In this document: piece after piece, positions 1,694-47,293 of the stretch
Layout: every line of letters begins with the position of its first letter
Numbering within the stretch: the stretch's first letter is position 1
IMG/VR virus record: IMGVR_UViG_3300025073_000608
Location: 1 to 64,000 of that record
Direction: 5' to 3' (one strand)
DNA length: 64,000 nt
Origin: a virus
Taxonomy: Duplodnaviria; Caudoviricetes
Notes under the pieces: model-generated
What the model was told of the DNA's origin: nothing
Database searches by the model: none
Seen by the model: only the letters and a program-made list of their open reading frames with translations
Program-made: the position numbers and the translations under genes

Positions 1694-2618
1694 TTTAATA
1701 TGTCAAGAATGTAAGGTTTTATTTGATTCCCTTAAATCTTTGCATTTACATTTAAGGTTACATAAAATTTCCCAAGTGGAATATTATCAAAAGCATTTTC
1801 CGCGATATGACCAATTCGATGGTTTTATTATTAAATTTAAGTCATTAGATTTTTATTTGAATAGTGATTTTAATTCGCGATTGAATGCTATTAAGTGGTT
1901 AAAAAAGGTTCCGAATAATCAGGCTATAGAATATATTCGTAAGTTTTTGTTGGAGAGAAAAGCAAAAAAAGGTCTTCGTTTTTTACCTTCTCAGGTGGAG
2001 TTGCGTTCTTTACCCATGGGTGGGATTAAATTACTAAATGAAATCACTGGGGACTATTTATCATTTGGTAAGGAAATAGGATTATCTTCTCGGTTTTCTT
2101 CTATTGAATTTGATGGAAATTGGAATAAATTTTCAAAAAAACATCGTATCATCGTAGATACAAGAGAACAAAAGCCATTATCATTTTCGATTCCGACCAT
2201 TTCAGAAGGGCTGATGTTCGGAGATTATATTTTGAATGATATTTTGTTTTCATATGATTGTCACATAGAAAGAAAATCTTTGGGAGATTTTTACACGACT
2301 TTAAGCTTGGGATTTAATCGTTTTTTAAGAGAAATAAACAAGGCCAAAGGGTCTTATTTAGTTGTGGTCATTGAAGAACCCATGGAGGAAGTATACAATT
2401 TTATTTATCGTCATCAAGTAGCCGGAAAAACAAGAATTAGTCCAGAATTTGTTCTTCACAACATGCGAGAAATTATTCAGAATAATCAATTTCTTCAATT
2501 TTTATTTGTAAATGATAGACAGGATGCAGCGAAAGCTATTGAAAGAATTTTTTGTTCTAATGGACAATTTAGAAATGTGGACCTTCAATATTTGTATGAT
2601 ATAGGAAATTTAATCTAA
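1686..2618 (+). CDS. C2H2 zinc finger plus ERCC4/XPF-Mus81-type nuclease
   Basis: N-terminal CQEC-x12-H-x3-H; ERCC4 motifs IIVDTREQ, GDY, IERKSLGDF. Confidence 0.8.
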   Translation: MDNLICQECKVLFDSLKSLHLHLRLHKISQVEYYQKHFPRYDQFDGFIIKFKSLDFYLNSDFNSRLNAIKWLKKVPNNQAIEYIRKFLLERKAKKGLRFLPSQVELRSLPMGGIKLLNEITGDYLSFGKEIGLSSRFSSIEFDGNWNKFSKKHRIIVDTREQKPLSFSIPTISEGLMFGDYILNDILFSYDCHIERKSLGDFYTTLSLGFNRFLREINKAKGSYLVVVIEEPMEEVYNFIYRHQVAGKTRISPEFVLHNMREIIQNNQFLQFLFVNDRQDAAKAIERIFCSNGQFRNVDLQYLYDIGNLI

Positions 2619-21600: not shown

Positions 21601-24600
21601 GGAGCTTTTGTTGTATCTGGAAAGACAGGAAGTTTCGTTGAGAGTAGTAAAACTGGAGCTTTTGTAGAAAATAGCGAAACTGGAAGTTTTATCACGTCAT
21701 CTTTAACTGGTTCGTTTATTACATCAGGTCAAACTGGACAGTTTTATCCAATAAGTAACCCAGCTCAATTTACTAACTCTGGGAACATTTCTGGTTTAGT
21801 AGAAAATTGGAAAATTAGTAATAGAGGAAATGCTGTATCTAACTCAGCTATGATTGGTGGTTCTCCAGGAATATATAATTCGGGAGGAGCAATGCCATCT
21901 AGTTGGATTTATGCTAACGCTGCGGGACTAGGACAGATTTATGCTATTTTAGGTCAAACGGGTTTTGAGAGTGGATATAACACTTTAGATATAAGGTTTT
22001 CTGGTGTTGCTACTTATGATTCTACTATTATTGTTTATTATTTATATGCTACTCAACCAGCGAGTACTCATTCGGGGCAATATTGGACTACTAATTTTGA
22101 TGCAAGATTAATTAGTGGTACTGGGATTATATTAACACCAGGTATTGTAGAGAGAAATTCTTCTTTTACATCTTTAGGTAGTATCAATGGACCTTCGGTA
22201 AGTTTAATTAATTCTGGTTATTTAACTTTAACTGCAACTAGTAAAATGACCCAACCTACGGTGGCTTATTTTGCACCAGTAATATATAGTTATTATGCTT
22301 CTGGGGTAACGGTAGATGCCTCGATTAGATTACGAAAAATATCTGCTAGACAAACAAGTTGGGAGTCTGATTATATTGTAACGTCGGGTATTCCTATTTA
22401 TGCAACCACTGGACAAATTGTGTTTGTTTCAATGACCGGGGAATTTTATCCTCGTTCTGGAAATCCTTCTGGATTTGTAATGGGTAGTCAAACAGGAGTA
22501 TTTGTAACCACTAGCCAAACGGGGGCTTATTATCCAATCAATAATCCCGCAAGTTTTATTCGTTCTGGAGATGTAACCACAACCTACGCATTAAACACCA
22601 AAACGGGAGATTTCGTTGAGGATACAAAAACTGGTTCATTCGTGGAAATATCCAAGCTGATAACCGGGTCGGTAATAACTACTGGTAATCAAACAATTTC
22701 TGGGGTTAAAACTTTTGTTTCCATGTTACATATTAAAACCCCCGTTGATTATACCGGACCAGACGCGGCCCTTATTAAATTCAACAGCGGGGTGTTGATA
22801 AGTCCCCCTTACGAAAGCGGGACGGTAGAATATGATGGTTATCATCTATGGTTAACGGACGGAACGGGAGTTAGAAATGCTATCATGACCTCGGGGGATA
22901 TTACTGGGCAATTTTATCCCATTTCTAATCCTGCCTCATTTATCCGTTCTGGAGACGTAACGACCACGTATGCGTTAAACACTAAGACGGGGAATTTCGT
23001 AGAAGATTCCGATACGGGTAAGTTCGCCGACGCTTCGTTAAGCACGTATTACGCGCTTAATACTAAAACGGGAGCTTTTATTACAAGTAGCCAAACGGGT
23101 AATTTCATCGAACAAAATAGAACGGGTATCCTTAGTGGACTTATTCTTACAACTGGATTAAGAATGCAAGGTCCGTTAACTACAAATTTCAATTCTTCAT
23201 TAATTGAAGCACATAATAATGTTGCATTTTATGCCAATAATAGTGGTGGGACAACTGCTTTTACAGGAATAATAAAATTAACTATGCCTTTTTCTTGGAC
23301 AACATCTATGATGTCTTTAGAATTAGATGGATTTGTACATGATTATTCAGGAGCTTGGAAATTATTATTAGGGGGAACCAATCATGCGACGACTATTCCT
23401 GCCCAATGGTTTTATTGCGATGCAAAATCATTAGGCACATTACCTTTTTCTGGGGTTCGTTTTGGTCATGATGGAACAAATTGTTGTGTTTTATTAGGAT
23501 TTACGGGAACTGTTTGGCAATATCCAAAAATTATATTATCTAGAGTTCTTTTGGGTCAAAGTAATTTTTTAAATAGGGCTACTGGATGGAGTTTTTCTCC
23601 GATTACAGATGATTCATCAATAACAGGTATTGTTACTGGAAGACTTAATTATTTATCTCAAGCGGATACTCTTGATGGATATCACGCTTCATCGTTTGCG
23701 TTTGCGAGCCAAACGGGAAGTTTCATTACATCTAATCAAACGGGAGCTTATTATCCGATTAATAACCCGGCTCAATTTATTAGAAGTGGAGATGTTACCA
23801 CAACATATGCTCTTAACACTAAAACTGGCTCATTTGTTGAATCTTCTAAGACTGGTTATTTAGAAAGAGATTTATATTTTAATTCTTATCTATCGTCTAC
23901 TGGTACATTAAGTAGTTGGTGGTATAGAATTGCTATGAGTCCATGGTCTGATAGCGGTAGAGGGGCTGCTTGGGTAAGTGTAGGTGGTGAAGGTGGATTT
24001 ACTGTTCCTGGCACTCACGTTTTTTATATTAGTAAAGATTGGACTACTGGAGCAGCTATATCTTTATTACATCAAACTAATAATAGATTTATTAAAGCCA
24101 GAATTGTATTAAATAGTGTCAATGCATTTTCTGCATTTGATATTTTTGCAACTAATACAGATACAGGGTCTACACCCTCAATGTTTTGTTTAGTTAAGAA
24201 TGATGATTCATTTCATCATTCTTCTTATAAATGGAGTGGTTGTCCTTGGAGTGGATATACATCTTTACCAGCAAATGAAATGATAATGACGGAGTTAGAT
24301 ATTTCTAATAATGCTGGATTAGGTTTTGCTTATGGGATGAATACTGGAATATTTAAAGCTGATATTTTCGGTATTCAAACTAGTAATATAAATATGACCG
24401 GGGGTATTTATGGGGCCACTAATACAGGAGCTTTTGTTGAGAATTCTGATACGGGAAAATTCGCTGACGCATCGTTGAGTACATATTATACCCTTAATAC
24501 TAAGACAGGCAATTTTGTTGAACAAAATAAAAATGCCAACCTTAGCGGTTTACTTACAAGTGGATTACAGATTAGGGGACCAACTACTGTAGATTTAGAC

Positions 24601-27600
24601 CAAAACGTTAGTATTGTTCGATATAAAGATGTGGCTACTTTTGTCGGAGATTATAGTGGGGCACCAACACCACAAACGGGGACATTAAAATTAAGACTCC
24701 CATTTTCTTGGTCTGAAACAATGTTGTATTTGGAAATAGACGGGTATAGCTATAATGCTAGTGCTAGTTATCCCACAACAGGAGCTTGGAAATTATTATT
24801 AGGTGGATTCTGTGCATCATCTACTAATAGTTGGTTTCAATATTCAGCGAAGTCTTTAGGCTCTATTCCCTTTTCTGGGGTAAGATTTGCCCATGATGGA
24901 ACAAATAATTGTATATTATTAGGACAAACAGGCACCGTTTGGTGGTATCCTAAAATATTTCTTTCTCAAATAACAATGGGTTATTTGAATTTTCGTAATA
25001 AATCTACTGGTTATAATTTTACTTTAGTTACTGACGAATCAAATATTACGGGTCAAAAAACTGGTATTTTAAACGAATATTCTAATTCTGACTTATTGGA
25101 TGGTTATCATGCGTCATCGTTTACTTTGGCTTCTCAGACGGGCTCATTTATTACGAGCAGTCAAACGGGTCAGTTTTATCCAATTACGAATCCCGCTTCG
25201 TTTATCCGTTCTGGAGACGTAACGACCACGTATGCGTTAAACACTAAGACGGGGAATTTCGTAGAAGATTCCGATACGGGTAAGTTCGCCGACGCATCGT
25301 TAAGCACGTATTATGCGCTGAATACGAAAACTGGCTCATTTGTCACTTCATTATCTACTGGGGGATTCGTTACTACTGGTCAAACTGGAAATTTTGTGCC
25401 AGCTAGCGTAGGAACTGGATATTTTGATAGATATTATTATCCAGTTAAAGGAATTATTGATAATTGGAGGTTAAGTAATATAGGTAATGCTGTTCCTAAT
25501 TCAGCATTAAAAGGAACGAATACTCCTGGGATTTATGGTTCTGGTGGAGCGATGCCTTATGGATGGAGTTATGCTTATGGAAATCCAACACAGGTTACTG
25601 GAATTGTTGGAAATACTGGCGTTGAAAGTGGTTATGAATATATAGATTTTAGATTATCTGGAAGACCAAATATCGTAAGTGCTGGTGGAGTGTATGCAGC
25701 ATTTAATACCGCAAGATTTTCGCCTGCTAGTGTGGGGGATATTTGGTTAGGAAGTTGTGAAGCAAGATTACTAAGCGGAACAGGGATTACTTTGTCGGTT
25801 TTAATTACAGAAAGAAACTCAGCAGATTCTTCTTTAAATTCTACTTATGGTTCCACAATTACCCTTCTTTCATCTGATACTGGATATCAGACATCAAGTG
25901 GAGTCAGGACTTTTACAGAAGCCACCGTCGCTTATCCTGGTTTACAATTTTTTCATCAAAATACAGCAAATGTAACTGTAGACGCATCGTTTCGTATTAG
26001 AAAACCGTCTTTACGTCTTATTTCTTGGGAAAATGATTACGTTTCGACAACTGGGACTGGTATTAGACCAACGACTGGAGAGATAGTTTTTGCTTCTATG
26101 ACTGGTGGTTTTATTACTACTGGTCAGAGTGGTCAATTTTATCCGATTACCAATCCGGCCTCGTTTATCCGTTCTGGGGATGTAACAACAACGTATGCGC
26201 TGAACACTAAAACGGGCAATTTCGTAGAAGATGCTGATACAGGTAAGTTCGCTGACGCATCATTGAGCACGTATTACGCACTGAATACCAAAACGGGAAG
26301 TTTTATAGATGGCACCGCTTTAACTACTGGATTTGTAAGAACTACAGGTAATCAAACAGTTAGCGGAATTAAGACCTTCGCTTCCCAATTAAAAGTTTCT
26401 TCTATCGTCTCATCTGGAAGTTCTCTTTCGATGGTCGATTTAGAAAATTCTAGAACAACAACAAGCGCGGGCTCGGCAAGTATTGACTGGGATAGTCGTG
26501 ATTTATTAAAGAATACAGAAGATTCGACGTTAAATTGGCAATCAAAATTGCTAACAGGTGGAGCTTGGAATGCAGAAGGACTAACTTTAAGTGGTTATAA
26601 TGTTATTACTGAAGGAAACATAAGTTCTTTTGCGGGGACGCCTTCTTCTACCGGATTTGTAAGAACTACTGGATTACAAGTGGTGAGTGGAACCAAATCT
26701 TTTCTTTCAACTATATATGCGATATATATTGGTTCGGATGGAAGTTCTCAATATATTGATTTTGTAGGCTCACAAATAATAGCCGATGATGGATTAGCTT
26801 CGATTTGGTGGAGTTTAAGAGAGTTGTTAGATAATGGAGAATCTACGACTTTAAACTGGAATACTCGTTTATTAACTGGGGGAAATTGGTATGCCCAAGG
26901 ATTAGTTCTTAGTGGTTATAATGTCGTTACAGAAGGAAACATAACCCAATTTACTTCTGGGACTTCATATACTGGAATTGTTAAAACAACAGGAAATCAA
27001 ACAATTTCAGGAACAAAAACATTTGCCGATAATATTAATGTAAATACAATCGGTCCGGCAGCGGGGGGAAGTTCTATTTCCGTAGATAGCAAACAACTTT
27101 ATAGTTTATTTGGGGTTTCTTTAGATTGGGCATCTTATATTTTAAACGATAATTTAGAGAATTTATCTATTAATTGGTCTGGAAGAATTCTTACTGGAGA
27201 CTGGAAAGCTAAATCATTATCGCTTAGTGGATATAATGTTGTAACAGATAATAAAACTGGAGGATTTTTAGATAGCTCCGCTTTAACTACCGGATATGTA
27301 AGAACTACTGGCAATCAGATAGTTTCTGGAAATAAAACTTTTTATAATAATGTAGGATTTAGAGTAGAAAATGTTGGCATTGCCCAAGCTTATTTCAGTG
27401 GAAATAGTGCCGGAAAAGCTGCTTGTGCCCCAATGAGATTCGGTAGCGGAGCATTAATTGCCAGCCCTGAATCTGGAGCGGTAGAATATGATGGAAATGC
27501 CCTTTATTTAACAGACACCAGGGGTAATAGACGAAGAATCGCTTCTGACAATACCATTTCAGTTAATCCTGGTGCCACCGTCCATCTAAACGCAATATCT

Positions 27601-27876
27601 GGCACAACTTTTAAAGTAAGATTAAAGGAAGATACGTCAATAATTATTACTGGATTATATGATGGACAAGAGATAAGGGTTATCGTTACCAATCCTAAAT
27701 CTCAGTCATGGGTAGTAACATGGACTGGAGAATACTTTTTCTGTTGGGATGGTGCCGGTTCCCCAGTTCAAACGGTGGGGAGCGCGAGTGGGGATAAAAC
27801 GGACTTTTATCGTTTTTCTCGTATTTCTTCTGGGGTATTCGGTTCTTATACTCAGAATTATAATTGGCCAGTGTAA
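18640..27876 (+). CDS. giant modular fibre / adhesin (3078 aa)
   Basis: Fibre repeats TTGNQTISGxKTF, YPxxNPxxF, KTGxFV, DxLDGYHAS; duplicated globular modules. Confidence 0.8.
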   Translation: MPNSWVRLKQLNKPEVSGYILEVVGEYLNTGSITGTATNTGQLTGEFYPRHSNPSGYISSVESDTFVTYPYLSGNNTNILTQVDNGYYPRSNPSGFLVSGQVVSGMMAQTGFAFNSNGQYTGFVLWANTQELPFLKFDGAQNLFQIKSLNNTGIINLSPGISGRSIISGFDLFVSKINNEPYLSSGYITGNFMKSAYFNGASGLILDYLSLQDVIRGGVFHFKTGTSENYYLLGKRLGFPSENIVMDMYGLTNSLYGISSNRPFVLGFNVYAQELYSSGYRAVTTLDFANSGYVTFVQLTGASGALSDAINQVTTNLAITGNYLLNRFTGLENSGNVKTTGNQTITGIKRFTSSVEFSGVDGLSGIQNINSTYWKLTSSGLTIGNTGGYQVIINPNNSTGVFLVKDSTIGYTGPSLGVGFRYDGGGFLSRGKIAFDDEGNTVITAGQVRFAGTTAMVTAGGIFSGNGSLLTNLNTGQLTGVLVQQSDLNNIRLVLYNTGAGTNPLVFTSSAFYLTNQSGTSKINLYDASPYISGFTFKNCIISGYVATTGNQTIAGIKTFTNNIYVSNISNTGNVAGISVVLGILSDPDSLASINWSGRQLLDYSEQEKLNWNSGILVGNWTLSGYNLITQAQTGLFVSTGQSGNFYPRYSNPSNYITAAEAGGVTSINGLSGILTVTGAGQVISTLVGSTFTFSGTTSGLVTTGVTGQFAMASKTGIFINTGQTGQFAIASKTGVFITTSQTGQFARSGSYITGAGTTGYYNLTGILRISGQGTITITTGNVASGQMGLIISGGVPNTGSFITTGQTGQFYSILNPAQFIRSGDVAATYVSGTKTGAFVETGRTGILADRRYVSTGYVAVIGNTSISGTKTFLGTVVTTNIAAKSTITSPTAQIHFAPSYTGPNTAPMKFNSGWLMTTPESGAVEYDGQFLYLTDGTGVRDKFLTSGTGLNLFALNTKTGGFVESSKTGSFVESGKTGSFVENFKTGAFVVSGKTGSFVESSKTGAFVENSETGSFITSSLTGSFITSGQTGQFYPISNPAQFTNSGNISGLVENWKISNRGNAVSNSAMIGGSPGIYNSGGAMPSSWIYANAAGLGQIYAILGQTGFESGYNTLDIRFSGVATYDSTIIVYYLYATQPASTHSGQYWTTNFDARLISGTGIILTPGIVERNSSFTSLGSINGPSVSLINSGYLTLTATSKMTQPTVAYFAPVIYSYYASGVTVDASIRLRKISARQTSWESDYIVTSGIPIYATTGQIVFVSMTGEFYPRSGNPSGFVMGSQTGVFVTTSQTGAYYPINNPASFIRSGDVTTTYALNTKTGDFVEDTKTGSFVEISKLITGSVITTGNQTISGVKTFVSMLHIKTPVDYTGPDAALIKFNSGVLISPPYESGTVEYDGYHLWLTDGTGVRNAIMTSGDITGQFYPISNPASFIRSGDVTTTYALNTKTGNFVEDSDTGKFADASLSTYYALNTKTGAFITSSQTGNFIEQNRTGILSGLILTTGLRMQGPLTTNFNSSLIEAHNNVAFYANNSGGTTAFTGIIKLTMPFSWTTSMMSLELDGFVHDYSGAWKLLLGGTNHATTIPAQWFYCDAKSLGTLPFSGVRFGHDGTNCCVLLGFTGTVWQYPKIILSRVLLGQSNFLNRATGWSFSPITDDSSITGIVTGRLNYLSQADTLDGYHASSFAFASQTGSFITSNQTGAYYPINNPAQFIRSGDVTTTYALNTKTGSFVESSKTGYLERDLYFNSYLSSTGTLSSWWYRIAMSPWSDSGRGAAWVSVGGEGGFTVPGTHVFYISKDWTTGAAISLLHQTNNRFIKARIVLNSVNAFSAFDIFATNTDTGSTPSMFCLVKNDDSFHHSSYKWSGCPWSGYTSLPANEMIMTELDISNNAGLGFAYGMNTGIFKADIFGIQTSNINMTGGIYGATNTGAFVENSDTGKFADASLSTYYTLNTKTGNFVEQNKNANLSGLLTSGLQIRGPTTVDLDQNVSIVRYKDVATFVGDYSGAPTPQTGTLKLRLPFSWSETMLYLEIDGYSYNASASYPTTGAWKLLLGGFCASSTNSWFQYSAKSLGSIPFSGVRFAHDGTNNCILLGQTGTVWWYPKIFLSQITMGYLNFRNKSTGYNFTLVTDESNITGQKTGILNEYSNSDLLDGYHASSFTLASQTGSFITSSQTGQFYPITNPASFIRSGDVTTTYALNTKTGNFVEDSDTGKFADASLSTYYALNTKTGSFVTSLSTGGFVTTGQTGNFVPASVGTGYFDRYYYPVKGIIDNWRLSNIGNAVPNSALKGTNTPGIYGSGGAMPYGWSYAYGNPTQVTGIVGNTGVESGYEYIDFRLSGRPNIVSAGGVYAAFNTARFSPASVGDIWLGSCEARLLSGTGITLSVLITERNSADSSLNSTYGSTITLLSSDTGYQTSSGVRTFTEATVAYPGLQFFHQNTANVTVDASFRIRKPSLRLISWENDYVSTTGTGIRPTTGEIVFASMTGGFITTGQSGQFYPITNPASFIRSGDVTTTYALNTKTGNFVEDADTGKFADASLSTYYALNTKTGSFIDGTALTTGFVRTTGNQTVSGIKTFASQLKVSSIVSSGSSLSMVDLENSRTTTSAGSASIDWDSRDLLKNTEDSTLNWQSKLLTGGAWNAEGLTLSGYNVITEGNISSFAGTPSSTGFVRTTGLQVVSGTKSFLSTIYAIYIGSDGSSQYIDFVGSQIIADDGLASIWWSLRELLDNGESTTLNWNTRLLTGGNWYAQGLVLSGYNVVTEGNITQFTSGTSYTGIVKTTGNQTISGTKTFADNINVNTIGPAAGGSSISVDSKQLYSLFGVSLDWASYILNDNLENLSINWSGRILTGDWKAKSLSLSGYNVVTDNKTGGFLDSSALTTGYVRTTGNQIVSGNKTFYNNVGFRVENVGIAQAYFSGNSAGKAACAPMRFGSGALIASPESGAVEYDGNALYLTDTRGNRRRIASDNTISVNPGATVHLNAISGTTFKVRLKEDTSIIITGLYDGQEIRVIVTNPKSQSWVVTWTGEYFFCWDGAGSPVQTVGSASGDKTDFYRFSRISSGVFGSYTQNYNWPV
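21514..21744 (+). repeat. 27-bp / 9-aa tandem repeat (KTGSFVESS-like), about 8.5 units
   Basis: KTGGFVESS KTGSFVESG KTGSFVENF KTGAFVVSG KTGSFVESS KTGAFVENS ETGSFITSS LTGSFITSG QTGQF. Confidence 0.9.
22939..23033 (+). repeat. 95-bp perfect direct repeat, copy 1
   Basis: tttatccgttctggagacgtaacg...ttcgccgacgc is identical to 25201..25295. Confidence 0.9.
25201..25295 (+). repeat. 95-bp perfect direct repeat, copy 2
   Basis: Identical to 22939..23033; a diverged (mostly synonymous) third copy lies at about 26164..26260. Confidence 0.9.
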
Positions 27877-36409: not shown

Positions 36410-37300
36410 ATGCCAGCCAGAATTTTATATGTTGGACAACAAGTAGCAATTTCACCCTACAACACTGGGGTTTCCATAACTCGTTATTTACCAGTTCAAT
36501 CTGCCAGTTGTGAAGTCACTCGACCAATTGAAGATATTCTTTCTTTCGGAAGATTAGGTTCATTGGGCCGTATCCAAAATAGCGTAAGTACTTGCCGAGC
36601 TGATATTAAAACCTATCTTCCTCTTTCCACGGGGGTAGGTCTTATTGATGACTCTTCTCGAACGAACATTCTTGACACGTTGTTAATTCAAACTCTTACG
36701 GGAGAAGCTTTGAATGGACAGGTTTCAACCATAGCCGTTACTCCTAATGGGTTCTATATGTCTGGTATTTTAACTAATATCGGTGTAGAAATTTCTAATG
36801 GGGCTTTCGCTACCGCTTCCCTTTCTTTTGCCGGTGTTGGTGAACCAACGTTTTCTTCCGCCCCAACTGGTGTTGGATTTACCCAACAAACAAACATGCC
36901 TGCTACATTTACTCCTGTCGTATCTAATTATGTATCTGGAGCAGTAAATACTGGATGTGCCAATAGTTTTAGATTTAGTCTTGACCTTCCAAATGAAACG
37001 ATTTCATGTCTTGGGGGTAAAACATCGGGAACTCAACAACAAGTAGCTTCAAGTTTTTCTATGGTTGCTAAACCTCCATTTAAAGCATCTATCAGTGTAG
37101 AGGGAACGTCTGTTGATACTCCTTCTGCTGCGTCTGGTGCCGCCGTATTTACTGTCGGGCGATTAAGTATTCAATTACCTCAAGGGGCAGTTGTTTCTAA
37201 ATCGTTTAATAACGCCGTTGGTAACGTTGGAGCAAGCTACTCTTATTCATTGGAAGACGTTTCTGCCAACTTTAGTGATTTTGGATTGGCTTATCCATAA
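36410..37300 (+). CDS. major tail tube protein
   Basis: VQSASCEVTRPIEDILSFGRLG pattern, SD AAGGA, followed by a terminator, upstream of chaperones and TMP. Confidence 0.75.
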   Translation: MPARILYVGQQVAISPYNTGVSITRYLPVQSASCEVTRPIEDILSFGRLGSLGRIQNSVSTCRADIKTYLPLSTGVGLIDDSSRTNILDTLLIQTLTGEALNGQVSTIAVTPNGFYMSGILTNIGVEISNGAFATASLSFAGVGEPTFSSAPTGVGFTQQTNMPATFTPVVSNYVSGAVNTGCANSFRFSLDLPNETISCLGGKTSGTQQQVASSFSMVAKPPFKASISVEGTSVDTPSAASGAAVFTVGRLSIQLPQGAVVSKSFNNAVGNVGASYSYSLEDVSANFSDFGLAYP

Positions 37301-37746: not shown

Positions 37747-38568
37747 ATGAAAGACATGAAATTTTTATTCGAAACAACTATTAGTAAATTAATAGAAAAC
37801 CCCACTATTGAAAAAACTGTTGACGCCAACGGAAATAAAATAGAAATTAAAAGAATCCTCAAAAAGCTTCAACCAATTAAAGTTGCCATCCTTAAACCTG
37901 ACAGACGTTTATTTAAAGCCGCAGAAATTTTTTATTCTAAAACCCTTGCTGATTATTTAAAGGCGGGGCTATTACCTTATTCATTAGTATCTAAGCGTTA
38001 TGCTAATGATGGTGGGCCGCTTTCAGAGACAGAAAAAGTAAGAATCGAGACTTTAAAGGCTCAAGCTATTAAATTAGAACAAGAGTTCTTCGCTAAAACG
38101 GGTCCAGATGCCGATGGAAATACTGAGTCAAAAAACGAACTTCTTGTTCAAATTAATAAAATCAACTCGGAATTGGGGCAAATTCAAAGTGCTTATTCTG
38201 ATATTTTTGAAAGCACCGCTGAGATGAAGGCTCGTAACGATACGTTAGAATGGTGGTCTTTACAATTGAGTCTTATTCAAGAAAATAGTAAAGAATATAA
38301 ACCTCTTTTCGGAGAGGGAAGTTTCGACGAAAAAATGTCTAAATTAGATGAATTTGATGAGATGAATGATGGCTTTTATTCAGAAGTAATTCGACGCCTC
38401 TCATTTTTAGTTAGTTTTTGGTTTACAGCTCGAAATACAACCATTTCCACTACTGATTTTTCTAATGTCGAAAAGTTATATTTAGAAACATCTAATAATT
38501 ATAATCCTGTGGAAGACCCAGACCCACAACCATTAATTACCGAAACCCCAGCTAATGTCAGCACTTAA
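37747..38568 (+). CDS. putative tail assembly chaperone 1
   Basis: Between tube and TMP; helical, charged. Confidence 0.5.
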   Translation: MKDMKFLFETTISKLIENPTIEKTVDANGNKIEIKRILKKLQPIKVAILKPDRRLFKAAEIFYSKTLADYLKAGLLPYSLVSKRYANDGGPLSETEKVRIETLKAQAIKLEQEFFAKTGPDADGNTESKNELLVQINKINSELGQIQSAYSDIFESTAEMKARNDTLEWWSLQLSLIQENSKEYKPLFGEGSFDEKMSKLDEFDEMNDGFYSEVIRRLSFLVSFWFTARNTTISTTDFSNVEKLYLETSNNYNPVEDPDPQPLITETPANVST

Positions 38569-39403
38569 ATTATCTGAAATTCAGCAGTTAAGATTAATTT
38601 ATAAAGAAATTATTGACGGTTACAGTTTTTTAGACCCAATTTCCGCTTATATTAAGCATCTATCTGAACCAGATAACATTTCTATTTTAAAGAAAAGGCA
38701 AGATTTTTTTAATTTCTATGTCTCTAATGGAATTCTTCCAGAAAAAGAAAAACTAGAAATAGCCTATTTAACAGAACAGTGGACACCAATAAAAGAAGAA
38801 GAAATAGCTGCTCTTAAATTAAGAATCAAAGATAATAGTAAGATGATAGAATCTATTATCCCTCAACAGCAAGAATTTATTAAAAAAGCCATAGAAAAAG
38901 ACAAATTAGACCTCGCTATTTTACTTTTAGAAAGAGAACAATCTTTAGGATTAACTGCCGAAGAATTAAGCGAGAAGGATTGTTTTAGGTATTTAATTTA
39001 TTTTTGTTTTTTTAAAGACAAAGACTGTTCAATCCCATTTTTTAATTCATGGGAAGAATTTGAATTATTAAGCGAGGAAGAAATTGCAAAATATAGTCAA
39101 CTCTTAGAATCTAATATGGTATTATTCTCTGAATTGAATATCCGTCTTATTTCGGTCATGCCATTTTTTATTAATGCATTCTCATACGCGAAAGAGAATG
39201 TCTTCTTTTTTTTAAATAGACCAATTGCATATTTAACCAATCACCAACTTCTTTTAATTGCTTGTGGCTCAAGAAATTTAAATATAGCCTCTCAAAGTAA
39301 AGGTAATCCCCCAGAACCATCTGATAATCAACCCGTTCAACATATTTTGGATTGGTATGACCAAAATTATAGTATCATGTTAGGTAAGAGAGATACTCGC
39401 TAA
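38555..39403 (+). CDS. putative tail assembly chaperone 2
   Basis: Immediately upstream of TMP; helical. Confidence 0.5.
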   Translation: MSALKLSEIQQLRLIYKEIIDGYSFLDPISAYIKHLSEPDNISILKKRQDFFNFYVSNGILPEKEKLEIAYLTEQWTPIKEEEIAALKLRIKDNSKMIESIIPQQQEFIKKAIEKDKLDLAILLLEREQSLGLTAEELSEKDCFRYLIYFCFFKDKDCSIPFFNSWEEFELLSEEEIAKYSQLLESNMVLFSELNIRLISVMPFFINAFSYAKENVFFFLNRPIAYLTNHQLLLIACGSRNLNIASQSKGNPPEPSDNQPVQHILDWYDQNYSIMLGKRDTR

Positions 39404-39436: not shown

Positions 39437-42400
39437 ATGGGATATAACATGATGTTAAAGATTGGTACGGAAGTGGATTCTTCCCCGGTAACGAGGTTTA
39501 TGAACGACATGCGTTCTAAATCGGCTGCTCTTGGCGCGTCCCTCTCTAAAAGCGATTTTATACCGGCTCTAGGAAGAATTACTGGTAAAGCTACCGAATT
39601 CCAAAAATCATTAGCGGCTTCTAATGCTCGTGTTATTGCTTTCGGTGCTTCTGCTGGGTCTATTTATGCGTTAAGAACCGCCTTCGTTAAATTAGTAGAA
39701 TCTACCGTTCAAGTAGAAAAAGCCTTATCTAGCATTAATTCTTTACTTAATTTGGGTTCTCGCGACCTACAATCATTTTCTAATAATTTATTTAGAATAG
39801 CTAATCAAACTGGGGTTAGTTTTCAAGATGCGGCCAAAGCTGCTACCGAATTTTCTCGTCAGGGTTTAGGGGTAGAAGAAACCCTTAAAAGAACCAGCGC
39901 AGCTCTTGCTCTTAGTCGTCTTTCGGGTTTAGGATATGAAGAAGCCGTTTCTTCTTTAACTGGTGCTCTAAACAGCTTTACCAAAGAAGCTCTTGACGCC
40001 GAAGATGTTGTTAATAGATTAGCGTCTGTAGATGCTAAATATGCTGTTAGTGCTGGAGATTTAGCTAAAGCCCTAAGCCGAGTAGGTGCCTCTGCGAGCG
40101 ATGCCAATGTTTCTTTTAATGAAACCATTGCCCTAGTTACTGCTGCCCAACAAGTTACTGCTCGTGGTGGTAGCGTCATCGGTAACGCCTTTAAGACCAT
40201 TTTTACTCGTCTACAACGTCCCGAGGTTCTTTTAGACCTTGAAAGTGCGGGAGTAATGGTTCGAAATTTACAGGGAGAAATGCTTCCTCTTATTCAAGTA
40301 TTAAAAAATTTATCTTCTACTTATGATAGTTTAGCGGTTGCCCAAAAATCGTTTGTTGCGGAAATGGTCGGTGGAGTTTATCAAATTAACATTTTGAAAG
40401 CTATTATGGCTGACCTTGGTTCTAATATGAGTATTTTTGGTGGGGCCATGAAAACTGCCGAAGAATCAATTGGTTCAGTGGATGCTCGTTTAAAAATTCT
40501 TAACAATACTATTTCAGCTCAACTTATCAGAACAACGAACGAGCTAGAAAAATCTTTTAATAATATTGGAACTTTATTACTAGGTGGTTCTATGCGTTCT
40601 GGATTAGATGTTTTTAATTCTCTTCTTAGTAAAGTAACGGCATTTACTGATAAAAGTTCAACTGAAGACGAAGGGATTTATCAAAAGATTGAATCTGTCG
40701 GGGCTCAAGGATTACTTAAAGGGGTGGCTACTATTTTAGGTGGGCCAGCAATTCAATTCGCATTATTTGCTATTTTAAAATTATTCGAACGTTTGCAGAA
40801 GTTCGTTATTGACTCTACTAAAGATTTCGTTGGATTAGACCAGAAAGCTAAAGAACGAGAGGCTATAGAACAAACAATCGTTGCATTACTAACTCAAGAA
40901 AAAGATGCTTTAGATAAATTAGTTTCTGGAGAGGAAACGGTATTATCAAAATCTCAGGCGATTTTAGCAACATTACAAAAACAAAATACAGAATTAAAAT
41001 TACGCGCTACTTATGCGAGCGCCATGACTAATATTCTAGCTCCATCTATTAGTATGGGCAAAACGGCTGCTGGAGGATTTGTCCCTAACCTAGCTTTAGA
41101 CCCAGAGCAAGCTGCCGCTAGGTCATTAGGATATTTTGCCGGAAGAACATTGTCTACTCAGGTAAAAGTAGGGAGTTCTTCGTTGAGAGTATTGGCTAAT
41201 GCTAATGAAAGTAAATCAACTGTCATTGGACCTAATGGAATGGCTTATGATTATATTCATCCACCAGAGGGGACTAAAGCTTGGGACTTACATAGAGCTA
41301 ATTCTATAGCGACCAATGGCATAGACCCAAAATTGTTAGCTAGAAGACCCGTAGCTGGGGGTTTTGTTCCTAATTTGGCAATTCCAAAATCAGCCCGAAG
41401 TTTGGGTTCTGGTTCTTATGGGGAGTTTTTTGATTATAGAAAAAATATTGGTGGTTATAGTATTGGCGCAAAAAAATTTAATACATCTTATTTAGATGAT
41501 GGTTCTGTCGATGAAATGATGTTGCATGAATCTGTTTCAAAAGAATATACTACCGGAAAAAAATTAGAAGCTCTAAATAAAGAGGGTTCGTTATTTACTT
41601 ATCCCAAAATATTTGGTGGATTATCGGGGTCAATGAGGGCTGGAAGAGTTGGTAAAGAAGTTCTTCCTGGAAGAAATCTATGGGATGCTTCTAAAAGTTC
41701 TATTCAAAGAAGTAGGCAGTTTGGTCGATATGAAGATTTAATGTCAGCTTTACAATTGTCTGCATTTCGAGAGATGATGAGTGTCGGAGTCCATGCTAAT
41801 GATTTTATTGGTCATCCAGGAAATACTGTTTTTAATGATAGAGCATTAGATATTTTTGATAAAATTAATAAAAATCCTAATAAAGCTGGTAAACTATCCG
41901 ATAGATTAAGAAAGAACCCACGACTTCAGTCTCAAGTGGGAGCGTCAATGGCAAGACAAGGGGCTAGACTTGGTGTTGTAGACCCTGTTTATGCTGGTGG
42001 TTTTATTCCTAATTTAGCTTTTGAAGATAATTTCTTTCAACCGAATGATTTATCTGAAGCCGCAAAACAATTCTTACCTGGACCTCAATATGATTTATTC
42101 ATGAAAAGAGCCCAGAAAAAAGGGCTAATTCCAAAAAGCAAAGAAGATTTAAGAAAATGGCTAGGTGGTGTCGCCGTGGGCAAAACTGGATTTGAAGGAT
42201 TTTCCTCAGAATCGGCAGACGCTTTCGCAAGTATCATGACCCGAAGTAATATAGCTGGAGAAAGAATGGCCAAACAGTCAGCTATTAATACTAAAATTAA
42301 TCCTGCCGATGCCCAAGAAATGCTCTCTTGGCTAGCACCGCAATTTCCCATGATTGCTGCCTATGCCCAATCTAGTAATGTTAAACCTTTTAAGAATTAT

Positions 42401-45400
42401 TCCTATGTAACCCCATTTCAAGCTGGAGAAAATTCTTTTAGAGTTCCTTTGAAATTTTTATCTCATTCTCAAGGACCAGCTTTATACGAAAAATTAATGG
42501 CAGACGCAAAGACGATGGGTTTTCCTCTTCCGAAAGAATCAATGGGGAGCGTGTTTGGAAATATATTCGATGCCTCAATGAAGAACTTCTTTCAGGAGCG
42601 CGGAGTGCCTGTTGGGGGTAAAAACGCAGCATTAGATATTATGGGATATCATCCTGATATCGCCCAATATATTGGAACAAACGAAAAATTCTCTGGGGCA
42701 GAAATTAAAGCTAGTATCGAAGAGGGTATAACTTCAATGCCTGGAAAGATTTTTAGAACTTTAGTAGGCGATGACGCTGGAAGATTAGTCGGTCCATCTT
42801 CAAAAGTTCCTCCTATTTTGGGGGTTAATACTTTTAATGAAAAAAGAGGTAATATTGGAATTTTAGATAGGGATACTTTTCAATCATCGGCTTCTCGTAG
42901 CACTAACTCTTTTGAATCATTGTTATATGGAGCAATGGCTACTCGTAGACCTTTAATGGTCCAAACTGGACCAATGGGAGCGGGGAAATTGGCGGCGGCT
43001 AAGGGTATGGGTGGTAAAATGATTTTATCCCAAGCCGACTTGGCAGGAGTAGAACAACTCTTATTAAATACTACCTCTCAAGCTGATACTGGAGTTTATG
43101 GATTAGCTTATGGACTTGCGTCTAAGATTAAAGCATTTAGGGGTTCTATTCCTTCTCTTAGAGCCAGAATGATTTCAGAAGGACGAAAAGAAAATCCTAA
43201 TGCTACTATTCACGAGGGAACAATGCAAGAATTTGAGGCTTTATTTGCTCGTTTAGAAAAGGAAATGGGGCCGTTAGGTCGATTATCTTATATGTCTGCT
43301 GCTGGAGGATTTATTTCTCCACTTGGGGAAGCTTTAAGGGCAGAAAATTCCATGACGGGGGGAAGAGGTCGAGTTGGTTCTCATCCCTTATTAGTTTCTC
43401 CATCTAATCCGATGGGTTTAGCTGCTTTTGATTCTAATCAGGGGACTGTTGGTAATGCAATTAATCAACATTCTTCTCGACAAAGTTTAGGACAAATTAA
43501 GCGACAACGAAGTTCTGCGGGAGGATTTATTCCTAATTTAGCAGAAGGAGAAATTTTTGGAACAAATTTAGGTAATTCTGTAATGTTAAGTTTAGTTGGA
43601 TTTGCCTCTCAATTAAATTATTCTCGGGATATCATGTCTAAGGTAAATAGCAAATATGGATTCTTTTTAAATTCTCACGATAAAGAATTGCAAAAAATGA
43701 ATCTCGTCACCCAAGAATATTCCAGATTACATAAATCCTTATTAAAACAAGAAACTGCACAAGTGTTCTTTACTTCTTCGTTAGATAAAAGTGCTGAAAA
43801 AGTTAGATTTACATCTCCAAAAGAAATGGAAGATAAATTTGGGGCATCCATTCAAGGATATTCTGAGGCTTTAAATAAAGAAAAATCAAGACTAGAAACA
43901 TCAAAACAATCAACTTTTAAAGCAGGACTTTTCACTAGTTTCGGTGGAGCTATGCTTGGGGGAATGGCATCTTCTATCGCGGGAAAATTTAGTCCTACTG
44001 CTGGGGCAGCTTTTGATAATTTAACTACTGCTGCCACTAATGCTGGACAGGCACTAGTGACATTTCCAAATAGAATAGGCAAAACAATTGCTGGCGGTAT
44101 TGCTGGGGCAGGAATAACACAGTCTTTAGATACCTGGATGAAAGGATTAGAGGGTTCTCGTTTTCAATTAGAGTTACAAACATCTAAAACTCAAAAATTT
44201 ATATCAAAACTTGATGCTCTTACCAGAACATTAGGAGAATATGATACTCTTGTTCATGATTCTGCTGTTCCTCTTCGGGTTTTAAATCAAGAAACAGTTA
44301 AATATATTAATCTTCTTTCCGAACTTAAAACTTCATCGGCTACGACTAATGGAGAAGGAAAGGTTTTGGCCGCAAGAATTGAATCGGCACCTACAAGTGC
44401 CGCAAAAATAGGACTATTACAAGAAGCAAGAGCCCTTAAGGAAAAAGAATTAGAAAAAGCTCAACTTGGACAATTAATTATGGAGTTGTCGGGAAAAAGG
44501 TCTGGATTAGGAATGAGTAGCGGAACCTTTAGTTATAATTCGGAATTAGAAAAAAGTTCTGTAGAACAAAATATCTCGTCTATCGCTGGGGGTATTGTTA
44601 ATCAATTATCTGAAGAGGTTAAAACTTCATTAAAAAATAACGTTACACAAGCGGGAACTTTTAGAAATATTTTAAATAACGATAAGACATCTAGTTCTTT
44701 TATAAATTCTATAGGAGAAAGAGGAAAAGGAGAACAAGATATTCAGGTTATTGTTCAAAAAATGAGGAATATCATGGCTCAACAACAGATGTCCTCATTG
44801 CCTGAAGCTGTTTCCGCACGAGAAACTCTTACTCAACAGAATTCTGTCCGACAACAAAGACTAGAAATGGTTACTCAACGAGAGCAATCACTTAGAAGAT
44901 TATATATTAATCAGGGGTCGTTTGCTACAGATAATGCGTTGGGATTAAGGGGTCTTGCAGCAAAACAATCATATGGAAAAACCACTTTAGAGGCCGAAAA
45001 GACTAACGCCCTTATGCCATTATTGCAACAACAATTTGGGGAAAGGTCTATAAGAAGTTTAAGAACCTCTATGGAACTTAACCAGGTTTCTAATGAGGGA
45101 CAATTTAAAGAGGGAGAAATAGCTAGAGACGTTCAGGGCTCTTTAAAAAATATTTATGTTCAATCTTTCGATAGCATGGCTAAAAATCTTACCGCAACTC
45201 AATTGGGCGCTAAAGGATTACAATCTACTATTAATCCTAGTTCTCAAGTGCTAATTGAAGGACTCAATACTGGTTTAGCTAAAGTATTGGGCCAAGGAAA
45301 TATTTTAAAAGACTTTAAGACTCCAACTGGTGGGTTTAATTTTGAAGCTTTTGAAAAAATGGTCGCTGCTTCTTCTGGCACATCTATTGGTGACCAATCA

Positions 45401-47293
45401 AAAATACAAAAATACATGGAATCGAATAGGTCACCAGAAGTATTAAAAGCTATTCAACAGGGAGTATTTTTAACAGCTAATAACACCCTAGATACCGCTG
45501 AAAAATCAGACAAAATCGTGGCCGGATTTGAAGCTTTTAGACAAGAAATGAATTTCAAACAGTTAGCAAATTTCATGGGCGGAATGAAAAATTTCATGGA
45601 TAGAGATTCTCGTCGCACTTTTAGACAAGATATCGTGCGCGGGCTCTCTCTCATGGAAAAGGGAACTAATCCAGAAATTAAAGGCCAAGGGGCAATGTTA
45701 TTTTTAAATAAAATGAAGGAAAGTAATGTTGCTATTGATTTAAGTGGCAAAAATCCTCTTTCTAAATTAATGTCAAGAGCTTTTTCTACAGCCCAATCGG
45801 GAATATCGTTTTCTCAAGATAAGTCATTTAATGAAATGTCGGGGATGTTACAACGACTTGGTTTATCTAAAGAAACAGTGAGCGGTTTTAAAGGATATAA
45901 ACAGGCAGGCTCAGAGATGTCTGCTTTAGCTTCATTACAGCTCCAACTACAACCAGAAAACGCAAAAATGTTACAGGCTGGAGATAAAGATATTTCGACT
46001 ATCCCAAAACAACTTAATGAAGCATTTTCCCAAACCTCTAAAGAAATTAAGGGATTTGGAGAATCTTTAGTTACCACAGGTAAGCAAGTAAAATCCGCTT
46101 TACAAGATATTACGGATGTCAGAAAACTAAATGCTGCTTCTGAAGCAACCGATTTAAAACGTTTTACTGATGTTATGGAAAAGATTGCTAAACGTTTTGA
46201 GGGGGCGACACAGGAACCAGAGCTTAAAAAACAATGGAACATCGCTGGTTCCTTACCAAGTGTTGGTGGGGCTGTGGCTGGAGCAGCCATTACTGGGGCC
46301 ATACAATTATTTGCCTATAATAGATTAGGAAAACTATTAGCTCAACAAGCAGCTTATAAACCTCAAGCACAATATTCTTCTTCTAAATATTATCCAGTTA
46401 ATTTTGATGATGATGTTGGTGTTCCTAGAGGCCAAGGTCCATATCGTCCTTATAATCCTGTTAGTCGTCCAGGAACACCTATATTTATGCCGGGGGTCGG
46501 TGGAGAAGAAGCTAGAAGGAAAATGTCATTTTTCCAAAATATGAAAAATAGGGCGGGAAAGATGAATTGGAAAGGAATAGGAAAAGGAGGAATGATAGCT
46601 TCGGCAATGATGCTTCCTATGATGTTACAAGCAGGAGAAGAATCAGGGGGAACTTCAGCTCTTGGAACTGCCGCTTCTTACGGAGGATTAGCTTCTATGG
46701 GAATGGCTGCTGCTAATATTGGGTCGAAATTTGCTGGTCCGGTTGGACTAGGAACCTCTGTGGCTTATGGAAGTTTCTCTGCCGGTCAAGCCCTTTATAA
46801 ATCAAGAATGGGAGATGTAAATCTTAGTAGTCGAGGGTTTGAAATCGAGCAATATGTTCAATCTAGATTGATGAAGGGGGACAGTAACGAAAAAATGACC
46901 CAATATTTAGACAAACTTATTAAAACTAATGATGAAAGCGCAAAATCACTAGATGGATGGCAAAAAGCATTTAGTCCTACAGCAAATGGACAATTGGGAA
47001 GTTTACAATCATCTACTCAAGAATTAAAGGCTATCCGAGCTAATTTAGACGTTATTAAACAAAATGGAGAACAACAAAAAGCCTTAGAAAACGCTGCTAA
47101 AACTGGAGAACCAGCCACAGTTAACTCTAATATGAAAGTCGAGATTTCATTAAAAGACGCCGCTAATGTTCCAGACATGATTATGAAAACATTTATTGAG
47201 CCATTAAAGGCTAAATTAGCTGAGTTACAAGCTCAAGTTGTTAATCTTCAATCAATAAATAATGTTACCGTAGCTCCCGCTGCCATAGAATAA
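39437..47293 (+). CDS. tape measure protein with inserted cargo domains
   Basis: N-terminal TP901-type TMP core (EFSRQGL, AVSAGDLAKAL, GSVIGNAFKTIFTRL); Ala/Gly-rich hydrophobic segments; 2618 aa. Confidence 0.92.
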   Translation: MGYNMMLKIGTEVDSSPVTRFMNDMRSKSAALGASLSKSDFIPALGRITGKATEFQKSLAASNARVIAFGASAGSIYALRTAFVKLVESTVQVEKALSSINSLLNLGSRDLQSFSNNLFRIANQTGVSFQDAAKAATEFSRQGLGVEETLKRTSAALALSRLSGLGYEEAVSSLTGALNSFTKEALDAEDVVNRLASVDAKYAVSAGDLAKALSRVGASASDANVSFNETIALVTAAQQVTARGGSVIGNAFKTIFTRLQRPEVLLDLESAGVMVRNLQGEMLPLIQVLKNLSSTYDSLAVAQKSFVAEMVGGVYQINILKAIMADLGSNMSIFGGAMKTAEESIGSVDARLKILNNTISAQLIRTTNELEKSFNNIGTLLLGGSMRSGLDVFNSLLSKVTAFTDKSSTEDEGIYQKIESVGAQGLLKGVATILGGPAIQFALFAILKLFERLQKFVIDSTKDFVGLDQKAKEREAIEQTIVALLTQEKDALDKLVSGEETVLSKSQAILATLQKQNTELKLRATYASAMTNILAPSISMGKTAAGGFVPNLALDPEQAAARSLGYFAGRTLSTQVKVGSSSLRVLANANESKSTVIGPNGMAYDYIHPPEGTKAWDLHRANSIATNGIDPKLLARRPVAGGFVPNLAIPKSARSLGSGSYGEFFDYRKNIGGYSIGAKKFNTSYLDDGSVDEMMLHESVSKEYTTGKKLEALNKEGSLFTYPKIFGGLSGSMRAGRVGKEVLPGRNLWDASKSSIQRSRQFGRYEDLMSALQLSAFREMMSVGVHANDFIGHPGNTVFNDRALDIFDKINKNPNKAGKLSDRLRKNPRLQSQVGASMARQGARLGVVDPVYAGGFIPNLAFEDNFFQPNDLSEAAKQFLPGPQYDLFMKRAQKKGLIPKSKEDLRKWLGGVAVGKTGFEGFSSESADAFASIMTRSNIAGERMAKQSAINTKINPADAQEMLSWLAPQFPMIAAYAQSSNVKPFKNYSYVTPFQAGENSFRVPLKFLSHSQGPALYEKLMADAKTMGFPLPKESMGSVFGNIFDASMKNFFQERGVPVGGKNAALDIMGYHPDIAQYIGTNEKFSGAEIKASIEEGITSMPGKIFRTLVGDDAGRLVGPSSKVPPILGVNTFNEKRGNIGILDRDTFQSSASRSTNSFESLLYGAMATRRPLMVQTGPMGAGKLAAAKGMGGKMILSQADLAGVEQLLLNTTSQADTGVYGLAYGLASKIKAFRGSIPSLRARMISEGRKENPNATIHEGTMQEFEALFARLEKEMGPLGRLSYMSAAGGFISPLGEALRAENSMTGGRGRVGSHPLLVSPSNPMGLAAFDSNQGTVGNAINQHSSRQSLGQIKRQRSSAGGFIPNLAEGEIFGTNLGNSVMLSLVGFASQLNYSRDIMSKVNSKYGFFLNSHDKELQKMNLVTQEYSRLHKSLLKQETAQVFFTSSLDKSAEKVRFTSPKEMEDKFGASIQGYSEALNKEKSRLETSKQSTFKAGLFTSFGGAMLGGMASSIAGKFSPTAGAAFDNLTTAATNAGQALVTFPNRIGKTIAGGIAGAGITQSLDTWMKGLEGSRFQLELQTSKTQKFISKLDALTRTLGEYDTLVHDSAVPLRVLNQETVKYINLLSELKTSSATTNGEGKVLAARIESAPTSAAKIGLLQEARALKEKELEKAQLGQLIMELSGKRSGLGMSSGTFSYNSELEKSSVEQNISSIAGGIVNQLSEEVKTSLKNNVTQAGTFRNILNNDKTSSSFINSIGERGKGEQDIQVIVQKMRNIMAQQQMSSLPEAVSARETLTQQNSVRQQRLEMVTQREQSLRRLYINQGSFATDNALGLRGLAAKQSYGKTTLEAEKTNALMPLLQQQFGERSIRSLRTSMELNQVSNEGQFKEGEIARDVQGSLKNIYVQSFDSMAKNLTATQLGAKGLQSTINPSSQVLIEGLNTGLAKVLGQGNILKDFKTPTGGFNFEAFEKMVAASSGTSIGDQSKIQKYMESNRSPEVLKAIQQGVFLTANNTLDTAEKSDKIVAGFEAFRQEMNFKQLANFMGGMKNFMDRDSRRTFRQDIVRGLSLMEKGTNPEIKGQGAMLFLNKMKESNVAIDLSGKNPLSKLMSRAFSTAQSGISFSQDKSFNEMSGMLQRLGLSKETVSGFKGYKQAGSEMSALASLQLQLQPENAKMLQAGDKDISTIPKQLNEAFSQTSKEIKGFGESLVTTGKQVKSALQDITDVRKLNAASEATDLKRFTDVMEKIAKRFEGATQEPELKKQWNIAGSLPSVGGAVAGAAITGAIQLFAYNRLGKLLAQQAAYKPQAQYSSSKYYPVNFDDDVGVPRGQGPYRPYNPVSRPGTPIFMPGVGGEEARRKMSFFQNMKNRAGKMNWKGIGKGGMIASAMMLPMMLQAGEESGGTSALGTAASYGGLASMGMAAANIGSKFAGPVGLGTSVAYGSFSAGQALYKSRMGDVNLSSRGFEIEQYVQSRLMKGDSNEKMTQYLDKLIKTNDESAKSLDGWQKAFSPTANGQLGSLQSSTQELKAIRANLDVIKQNGEQQKALENAAKTGEPATVNSNMKVEISLKDAANVPDMIMKTFIEPLKAKLAELQAQVVNLQSINNVTVAPAAIE
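41069..43543 (+). repeat. five dispersed AGGF(V/I)PNLA-type peptide repeats in TMP
   Basis: 41069-41095, 41354-41380, 41993-42019, 43301-43324 (degenerate AGGFISPL) and 43517-43543. Confidence 0.9.

Follow-up and report, generated by a model that had tools for sequence, protein, structure and literature searches.

The window analysed here is a 64,000-nucleotide stretch of phage DNA (IMG/VR record IMGVR_UViG_3300025073_000608, positions 1 to 64,000). Its source is a single 105,075-base virus contig from an uncultured phage, with a G+C content of 31-38%. Within the window, a 2618-residue open reading frame (ORF) on the + strand encodes a giant tape measure protein (TMP), and a segment of this protein, amino acids (aa) 649-852, has the features of a minimal protein kinase. 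Residues 122-310 of the TMP match PF10145 (E 3.5e-28), ten PHROG TMP families match the ORF (best 3e-42), and a weak major-tail-protein match (E 4.5e-4) lies upstream at 36410-37300. Judged by its PF10145/PHROG core, its giant size and its position after the major tail protein, the carrier is a phage tail TMP. The features that concern us are given below, with residue counts that refer to the 31 copies of the module found in its family.

39437..47293, + strand: TMP gene, a 2618-aa ORF with PF10145 and PHROG TMP matches
41351..41380, + strand: VAGGFVPNLA (aa 639-648), linker peptide 2, which immediately precedes the kinase module
41381..41992, + strand: minimal protein-kinase-like module, aa 649-852, assigned from the family profile, the predicted model and its structural neighbours
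41402..41422, + strand: Gly-rich loop LGSGSYG (G657, G659 and G662; Gly in 29, 31 and 28 of 31 copies), which pairs with the kinase G-loop
41471..41473, + strand: beta-3 lysine K679 (Lys in 31/31), which pairs with the VAIK-type Lys of the calcium-dependent protein kinase (CDPK) 3is5
41543..41545, + strand: helix-C glutamate E703 (Glu in 30/31), which pairs with the helix-C Glu of the CDPK
41801..41836, + strand: catalytic loop D789-x3-H793-x2-N796-x3-N800 (Asp in 30/31, His in 22/31, Asn in 30/31 and Asn in 31/31)
41837..41956, + strand: insert of three helices (aa 801-840; assigned by DSSP in the model), which separates the catalytic loop from the metal-binding strand
41981..41983, + strand: putative metal-binding Asp D849, the equivalent of the DFG Asp (Asp in 30/31), which follows a short strand
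41990..42019, + strand: linker peptide 3, YAGGFIPNLA, aa 852-861, directly downstream of the kinase module

Peptides of the form GGF[VI]PNL start at aa 546, 641, 854 and 1362 of the TMP, and a degenerate copy starts at aa 1290. A first-pass annotation, made from the window sequence alone, had placed a kinase-like domain between the second and third of these repeats and had it end at the next repeat; aa 649-852 are exactly the piece between the two peptides, with an end 4 residues short of the third repeat. The same annotation listed seven kinase motifs in the correct order, and all seven are present in the ORF translation. Besides the Gly-rich loop, these are GAKKF (41465-41479), (S)KEY (41537-41548), YPKIFG (41600-41617), KEVLPG (41654-41671), the catalytic-loop string GVHANDFIGHPGN (41786-41824) and LGVVDP (41969-41986). 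Two details of the catalytic loop had to be corrected. The loop had been given a start at 41792, which is 6 nt off the true start at 41786, and the first His of the HxDxHxGN pattern assigned to it is not conserved in the family, where the conserved pattern is D-x(1-3)-H-x-x-N-x-x-x-N.

The family was collected with an HMMER scan of 1,835,955,588 representative proteins at E <= 0.001. Matches to the module were obtained in just 23 proteins, 11 of them at <= 1e-10, so the family is rare; the window's own cluster is among them. Twenty are 2369-5354 aa long and share the N-terminal region of the window TMP at E <= 3.4e-69; these are therefore homologous giant TMPs. The remaining three are short (385, 609 and 1534 aa) and lie on contigs of 4.3, 26 and 8 kb. 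Iterated local searches located 31 domain copies in the family proteins, with no more than three per protein. Profile searches for free-standing forms returned one match in the size range of 111-431 aa (a 337-aa protein from a contig of 2.5 kb) and two in the range of 432-2000 aa (from contigs of 3.6 and 12 kb). Most of the short matches are read as fragments, and a stand-alone form of the module is not established; as observed here, the module is restricted to giant TMPs.

Searched on its own, the window copy gives nothing significant in Pfam (its sole match is MDHAR3-like_C, E 0.13), no PHROG family, and just an Asgard tubulin among PDB sequences (E 0.56). tblastn and megablast searches of 50,697 phage records found no match to the window segment. 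The single protein and a 4-sequence alignment were also used as queries to find related DNA loci among viral, genome and metagenome contigs; of the 10, 43, 65 and 202 pattern-matched stretches obtained, none was confirmed by tblastn.

Alignment A1 contains 23 rows, one copy per protein, with 21-35% identity to the window copy. Its invariant columns are the linker Pro, G659, E703, P723, K740, G745, D789, N796, N800, G842 and D849, and K679 is nearly invariant. Because each motif falls on an invariant or near-invariant column of this 23-sequence alignment, the motifs represent more than a chance resemblance. All six catalytic positions (Lys, Glu, Asp, Asn, Asn and Asp) are kept in 30 of the 31 copies. 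Every exception falls in one degenerate copy, the middle one of three (residues 1149-1351) in P0004, a 4397-aa metagenome TMP. This pseudokinase-like copy no longer has a Gly-rich loop, the Asp and Asn of catalysis or the Asp for metal binding, and the two copies that flank it are intact. The family motif around D849 is h-h-D-P-G-h-F, similar to the h-h-D-F-G-h found in kinases. At position 741 in strand 5, 25/31 copies have Glu, 3/31 have Gln, 2/31 have Ser and 1/31 has Lys.

A hidden Markov model built from A1 was compared with all PDB chain sequences. It matches 900 distinct sequences at E <= 10, the best being a Toxoplasma calcium-dependent kinase (7.1e-7), and 59 of the best 60 of these 900 matches are protein kinases. 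The HMMER alignments pair the Gly-rich loop, K679, E703 and D789/N796 with the Gly-rich loop, strand-3 Lys, helix-C Glu and catalytic-loop residues of kinases; in the CDPK, the partners of D789 and N796 are the D and N of HKDLKPEN. These alignments end where the three-helix insert begins, before D849. In Pfam, Pkinase matches 3/23 family members (best E 1.5e-4) and ABC1 weakly matches 2/23 (E 0.11). The window copy has no match at E <= 1 in that scan, to PF00069 (Pkinase) or otherwise, and the model described next has no helices after the "DP" strand; the module thus falls outside the eukaryotic-type kinase domain of PF00069, with its activation segment, APE motif and helices F-I.

An AlphaFold2 model computed on A1 has a mean predicted local distance difference test score (pLDDT) of 82.4 and a predicted template modelling score of 0.78. 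Adding 629 to the model numbering gives TMP numbering. Strands 1-3 occupy residues 25-52, where the Gly-rich loop connects strand 1 to strand 2, and are followed by helix C (64-82), strand 5 (108-112, the conserved G-K-E-V) and a long helix E (129-152). The module has a full N-lobe (strands 1-5 and helix C), a hinge, and helices D and E. The catalytic loop (158-171) leads into the insert helices (172-181, 185-197 and 199-211), a short strand (216-218) and D220-P, which corresponds to D849; beyond this point the chain is disordered into the next linker. The module is truncated at this "DP" strand, without an activation segment and without helices F-I, the substrate lobe. About 40 helical residues lie between the catalytic loop and the metal-binding strand, whereas ordinary kinases have a tight hairpin there. 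According to the model, the module keeps all residues needed for ATP and metal binding, plus the catalytic base. Its predicted topology, with helices before rather than after the metal-binding strand, is not seen among the solved structures compared.

Structural comparisons with this model returned kinases. In the Foldseek search of the PDB, the matches described are all kinases or kinase-like phosphotransferases (best E 4e-4), and in the Foldseek search of BFVD, the named matches are viral kinases or phosphotransferases, except for three pieces of nidovirus replicase polyproteins. VIA-align against 48,161 representative chains gave 62 at Z >= 8, and the best 50 of these 62 are all kinase-like. 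They include BRAF (Z 11.1), Rio2 (10.9), OspG (10.3), Rio1 (10.2), PknE (10.2) and NleH1 (8.9); among small-molecule, RNA and ABC1 types, Z values are 9.1 and 8.9 for APH(2''), 8.7 for the RNA kinase Ark1, and 9.8 and 8.3 for Rv3197/ADCK3-type proteins. When the best 1000 Foldseek matches were re-ranked, human PRPK (Bud32; 7szc_A) came first, with Z 11.5, a root-mean-square deviation of 3.7 and 167/229 residues aligned. The structural alignments cover the D849 region, with one, for example, spanning model residues 12-233. Together with the position of the h-h-D-P-G-h-F motif after a strand, they give indirect support to a clustering of the catalytic residues in space, the lack of which the first-pass annotation had named as a second point that would count against it. 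Matches in the ESM Atlas served as leads only (scores 0.91-0.93; one cluster with Pkinase in 20% of its members and one YrbL cluster).

The first-pass annotation had claimed a protein kinase-like (PKL) fold, and had set beforehand the absence of such a fold from structure prediction as evidence against its own claim; a kinase-like fold was found, and both the A1 profile matches to solved kinases and the neighbours of the AlphaFold2 model bear the claim out. Membership of the module in the PKL superfamily is well supported, since two separate lines, a sequence profile and a predicted structure, agree on it.

In the N-terminal third of the TMP, the module forms a cassette that is flanked by disordered G-F-[VI]-P-N-[FL]-A linkers. 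Both linker ends are disordered in the AlphaFold2 model, in which pLDDT falls below 50 only at model residues 1-18 and 227-246. This layout recurs in the family: 29/31 copies have a [VI]-P-[NS]-[FLYM] peptide in the 20 or so residues before them, and 21/31 have one in the 30 residues after them. The window's four linker DNA copies show a mutual identity of just 60-76%, so conservation acts on the peptide rather than on the DNA. Linkers that serve as DNA-level recombination sites were considered and found unsupported, as the peptide is kept although its DNA copies differ to this extent.

Family TMPs carry one to three kinase cassettes each, with starts that range from residue 4 to residue 2730. 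A neighbouring module of the window TMP (aa 863-1289; 42020-43300) recurs in three other family TMPs, P0009, P0010 and P0018 (E 2e-31 to 2e-43). There it precedes the kinase module, whereas in the window it follows, and this difference in order suggests that TMP modules shuffle independently. Because copy number and position vary and one copy is degenerate, the kinase module looks like swappable accessory cargo rather than a core assembly part. A DUF7178 match (E 2.2e-19) and a weak GHKL-ATPase-like HATPase_c_3 match (E 0.0012) were observed in the same region of P0004 as its kinase copies; the DUF7178/GHKL-like stretches are located at residues 664-868 and 1650-1714 of P0004 and at residues 286-482 of P0031.

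Several other features of the TMP and its surroundings were recorded. In the C-terminal half of the TMP, three uncharged, Gly-rich hydrophobic stretches occur at aa 1496-1516 (43922-43984), 2269-2289 (46241-46303) and 2403-2426 (46643-46714); they would fit a membrane-inserting, channel-forming end and are candidates for it. Directly upstream of the TMP gene, two ORFs at 37747-38568 (273 aa) and 38555-39403 (282 aa) overlap by 14 nt and lie where a pair of tail assembly chaperones is usually encoded. The PHROG scan gave no match for either of them, and matches in just 2/20 ORFs of the structural region. A second giant ORF, of 3078 aa, lies upstream of the TMP in the same structural block (18640-27876), and the large terminase (TerL) gene lies at 2618-4453. 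No tRNA genes were found in the window. TerL is 22-26% identical to collection phages (Bacillus, Clostridioides and Microcystis phages) among the matches listed, and the TMP N-terminus is 25-31% identical to TMPs of Bacillus and Lactococcus siphophages, with nothing closer. By these sequence comparisons, the phage is very distant from catalogued phages.

We consider it probable that aa 649-852 form a truncated, catalytically complete kinase-like phosphotransferase, which is carried in the virion and would phosphorylate host proteins before any phage gene is expressed. Because the six catalytic positions are kept in 30/31 copies, sequence conservation indicates that the module is most likely an active minimal phosphotransferase carried in the virion, which would bind ATP and transfer phosphate. 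TMPs exit the tail ahead of the DNA, and the TMP of Thermus phage P23-45 carries a virion RNA polymerase, according to PMC10770324. On these grounds, the TMP studied here, expelled ahead of the DNA, would carry its kinase module into the host cytoplasm. Speculatively, the module could be threaded unfolded and refold in the cytoplasm, perhaps after being freed at the linkers. There it would phosphorylate host proteins before any phage gene is expressed, a step for which the precedents are the kinase of T7 and the truncated ones found in polyvalent proteins. By the same analogy, an injected kinase that acts on host defence proteins at the moment of infection, as the first-pass annotation had suggested, is plausible. 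A fuller version would view the TMP as an "effector train," in which modules are stored unfolded in the tail lumen, threaded ahead of the DNA, freed at the P-N/[FL]-A linkers (possibly by Asn-mediated self-cleavage) and refolded, with the kinase phosphorylating host defence or housekeeping proteins before phage transcription. In this version, the module would do from within the virion what the T7 kinase does in its broad counter-defence. We put this version forward only tentatively.

A number of points weigh against an active, virion-delivered kinase. The kinase assignment comes from a family profile and a predicted model derived from just 23 sequences, the Foldseek E values are modest (best 4e-4) with TM-scores of 0.3-0.5, and the window's own copy by itself matches no Pfam, PHROG or PDB entry. 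The loss of helix F and the substrate lobe, together with an unusual 40-residue insert, means that activity cannot be assumed. The window copy also has DPV, whereas 20/22 other aligned segments have D-x-G (mostly DPG). A folded 200-aa domain would not fit the lumen of a siphovirus tail, and Bud32/PRPK and RIO, the nearest structural neighbours, act largely as ATPases.

This last point leads to a different role, in which the module would be no host effector but an ATPase or nucleotide-dependent switch for the phage itself. It would act in the assembly of the tail or in ejection, for example by controlling how the TMP folds, when a chaperone is released or when a channel opens, in the manner of Bud32/RIO switches. 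The module is seen only inside TMPs, as such a role would have it, and PRPK/Bud32 and RIO are among its best structural neighbours. However, homologous TMPs differ in the number of copies (1-3) and in where these lie (anywhere between about aa 4 and aa 2730), one family copy is degenerate, and it is established biochemistry that there is no ATP outside the cell at ejection; we therefore regard an assembly or ejection switch as rather unlikely. The degenerate copy can also be read as a sign that the module is a pseudokinase, which would serve as a spacer, nucleotide-binding or purely structural, and make the TMP bulkier or longer, or would act as a decoy for host sensors. The loss of helix F and the activation segment and the DPV of the window copy point the same way. 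Yet a scaffold is not expected to keep six catalytic positions in 30/31 copies at 21-35% identity to the window copy, and a pseudokinase is accordingly improbable.

The substrate might also be something other than protein, such as a precursor of the envelope, RNA, or a nucleotide that a defence system uses as second messenger, with the enzyme either delivered or made late. The absent protein-substrate lobe leaves the substrate class open, the structural neighbours include APH(2''), Ark1 and Rv3197/ADCK3-type ABC1 proteins, and the weak Pfam ABC1 match points in the same direction. Against this, the best profile matches are without exception protein kinases of the eukaryotic type, Pkinase is the most frequent Pfam match in the family, and the large helical C-lobes of small-molecule kinases are missing from the module. 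A non-protein kinase is thus unlikely. The possibility that kinase-like motifs have arisen by chance in a non-globular TMP segment is negligible. It would account for the lack of a significant single-sequence match to the window copy, but it is refuted by the conservation of the family, by a profile match to kinases at E 7e-7 and by a confident model with kinase-like neighbours.

In the literature covered by our searches, we found no report of a tape measure protein that contains a kinase. Truncated phage kinases themselves are known. What appears to be new is that such a kinase, truncated and probably delivered with the virion, has a TMP as its carrier and an unusual predicted topology. Phage kinases that disable defences must first be expressed, whereas a TMP-borne kinase, if our proposal is true, would act before transcription and close the interval open to restriction, abortive-infection and sensor systems. 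It would also extend the idea of TMPs as delivery vehicles for cytoplasmic enzymes, which has been shown so far for the P23-45 RNA polymerase, and the idea that strong selection can be survived by a kinase that is reduced to about 200 residues. The question is directly testable, as the module is small, a free-standing form is not detectable, and clear catalytic mutants are possible.

Among known systems, Bud32/PRPK and RIO are the best structural matches (Z 11.5 and 10.9) and likewise lack the activation loop and substrate lobe. The strand-4 "P" and the strand-5 "E-x-x-x-G" pattern of the module look similar to those of the Bud32/PRPK-RIO group. These proteins tie within 1 Z unit with the ordinary kinases BRAF and DAPK1, and none of the 17 Pfam families listed for family members is RIO1 or Bud32-type. 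Unlike the TMP module, Bud32/PRPK and RIO are cellular housekeeping proteins, not phage structural proteins.

The type III-injected minimal effector kinases OspG and NleH (PDB 4q5h, 4bvu and 4lrj) resemble the module in their minimal size and fold and in the absence of a substrate lobe. OspG aligns at Z 10.3-10.4 over 143-144 residues of a 169-171-residue chain, and NleH1 at Z 8.9. They are delivered through a narrow conduit, as is proposed here for the TMP module. In contrast, OspG and NleH are bacterial effectors directed against eukaryotic cells, and neither gives a sequence match in the best 60 of the 900 profile matches. In OspG, the helices follow the metal-binding Asp, whereas here they precede it. 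OspG needs a host partner for activity.

T7 gp0.7 (T7K) is an early-expressed, free phage kinase that phosphorylates many host proteins, and it reportedly disarms bacterial defences (2026 Nature paper, PMC13645617). The gp0.7 family (eight T7-like kinase genes, L001-L008) shares with the module a D-x-H-x-G-N catalytic loop and a "DP" metal-binding strand, and the kinase core of T7K is likewise short. Unlike the module, T7K has no three-helix insert and is not part of the virion or of a TMP. A specific kinship was rejected: hhalign of A1 against the 8-member gp0.7 alignment covers 24 columns at the catalytic loop (probability 5.2%, E 0.0075), and T7 gp0.7 alone against A1 gives a probability of 3%.

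The kinases of polyvalent proteins (Iyer, Burroughs, Anand, de Souza and Aravind 2017, J Bacteriol) are truncated Ser/Thr/Tyr-type domains and form, in the words of PMC5512222, a "distinctive monophyletic group." They have lost the C-terminal subdomain, carry an insert between the conserved His and Asp, and have a conserved Gln in the last N-lobe strand; their carriers are (pro)phages of Verrucomicrobia-Chlamydia and Bacteroidetes, and also conjugative elements. Like the TMP module, they form part of a giant multidomain protein whose entry into the host along with the DNA is presumed, and they lack the whole C-terminal subdomain and keep the residues for ATP binding and phosphotransfer. Their insert between the catalytic-loop His and Asp may correspond to the three helices between H793/N800 and D849. 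The same function was proposed there by analogy with the T7 kinase. Two differences stand out. The conserved Gln of that group corresponds, if our mapping of the column is right, to a position that is mostly Glu here (25/31), and its carriers are not TMPs; the term "tape measure" occurs 0 times in PMC5512222.

The closest parallel in the carrier is gp96 of Thermus phage P23-45 (Chaban et al. 2024, Nat Commun; PMC10770324). This TMP of 5002 aa has a virion RNA polymerase as its N-terminal part, and the polymerase transcribes pre-early genes. The enzyme there is an RNA polymerase and its activity is experimental, whereas here it is a kinase and its activity is predicted; a linker-delimited cassette layout does not come up in the passages on gp96 that were covered. 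Both phages are long-tailed and have, towards the N-terminus of a giant TMP, an enzyme of a type that acts in the cytoplasm. As described in PMC10770324, gp96 provides an experimental precedent for a TMP-borne enzyme that works in the host at the start of infection, which is the role we propose for the kinase module.

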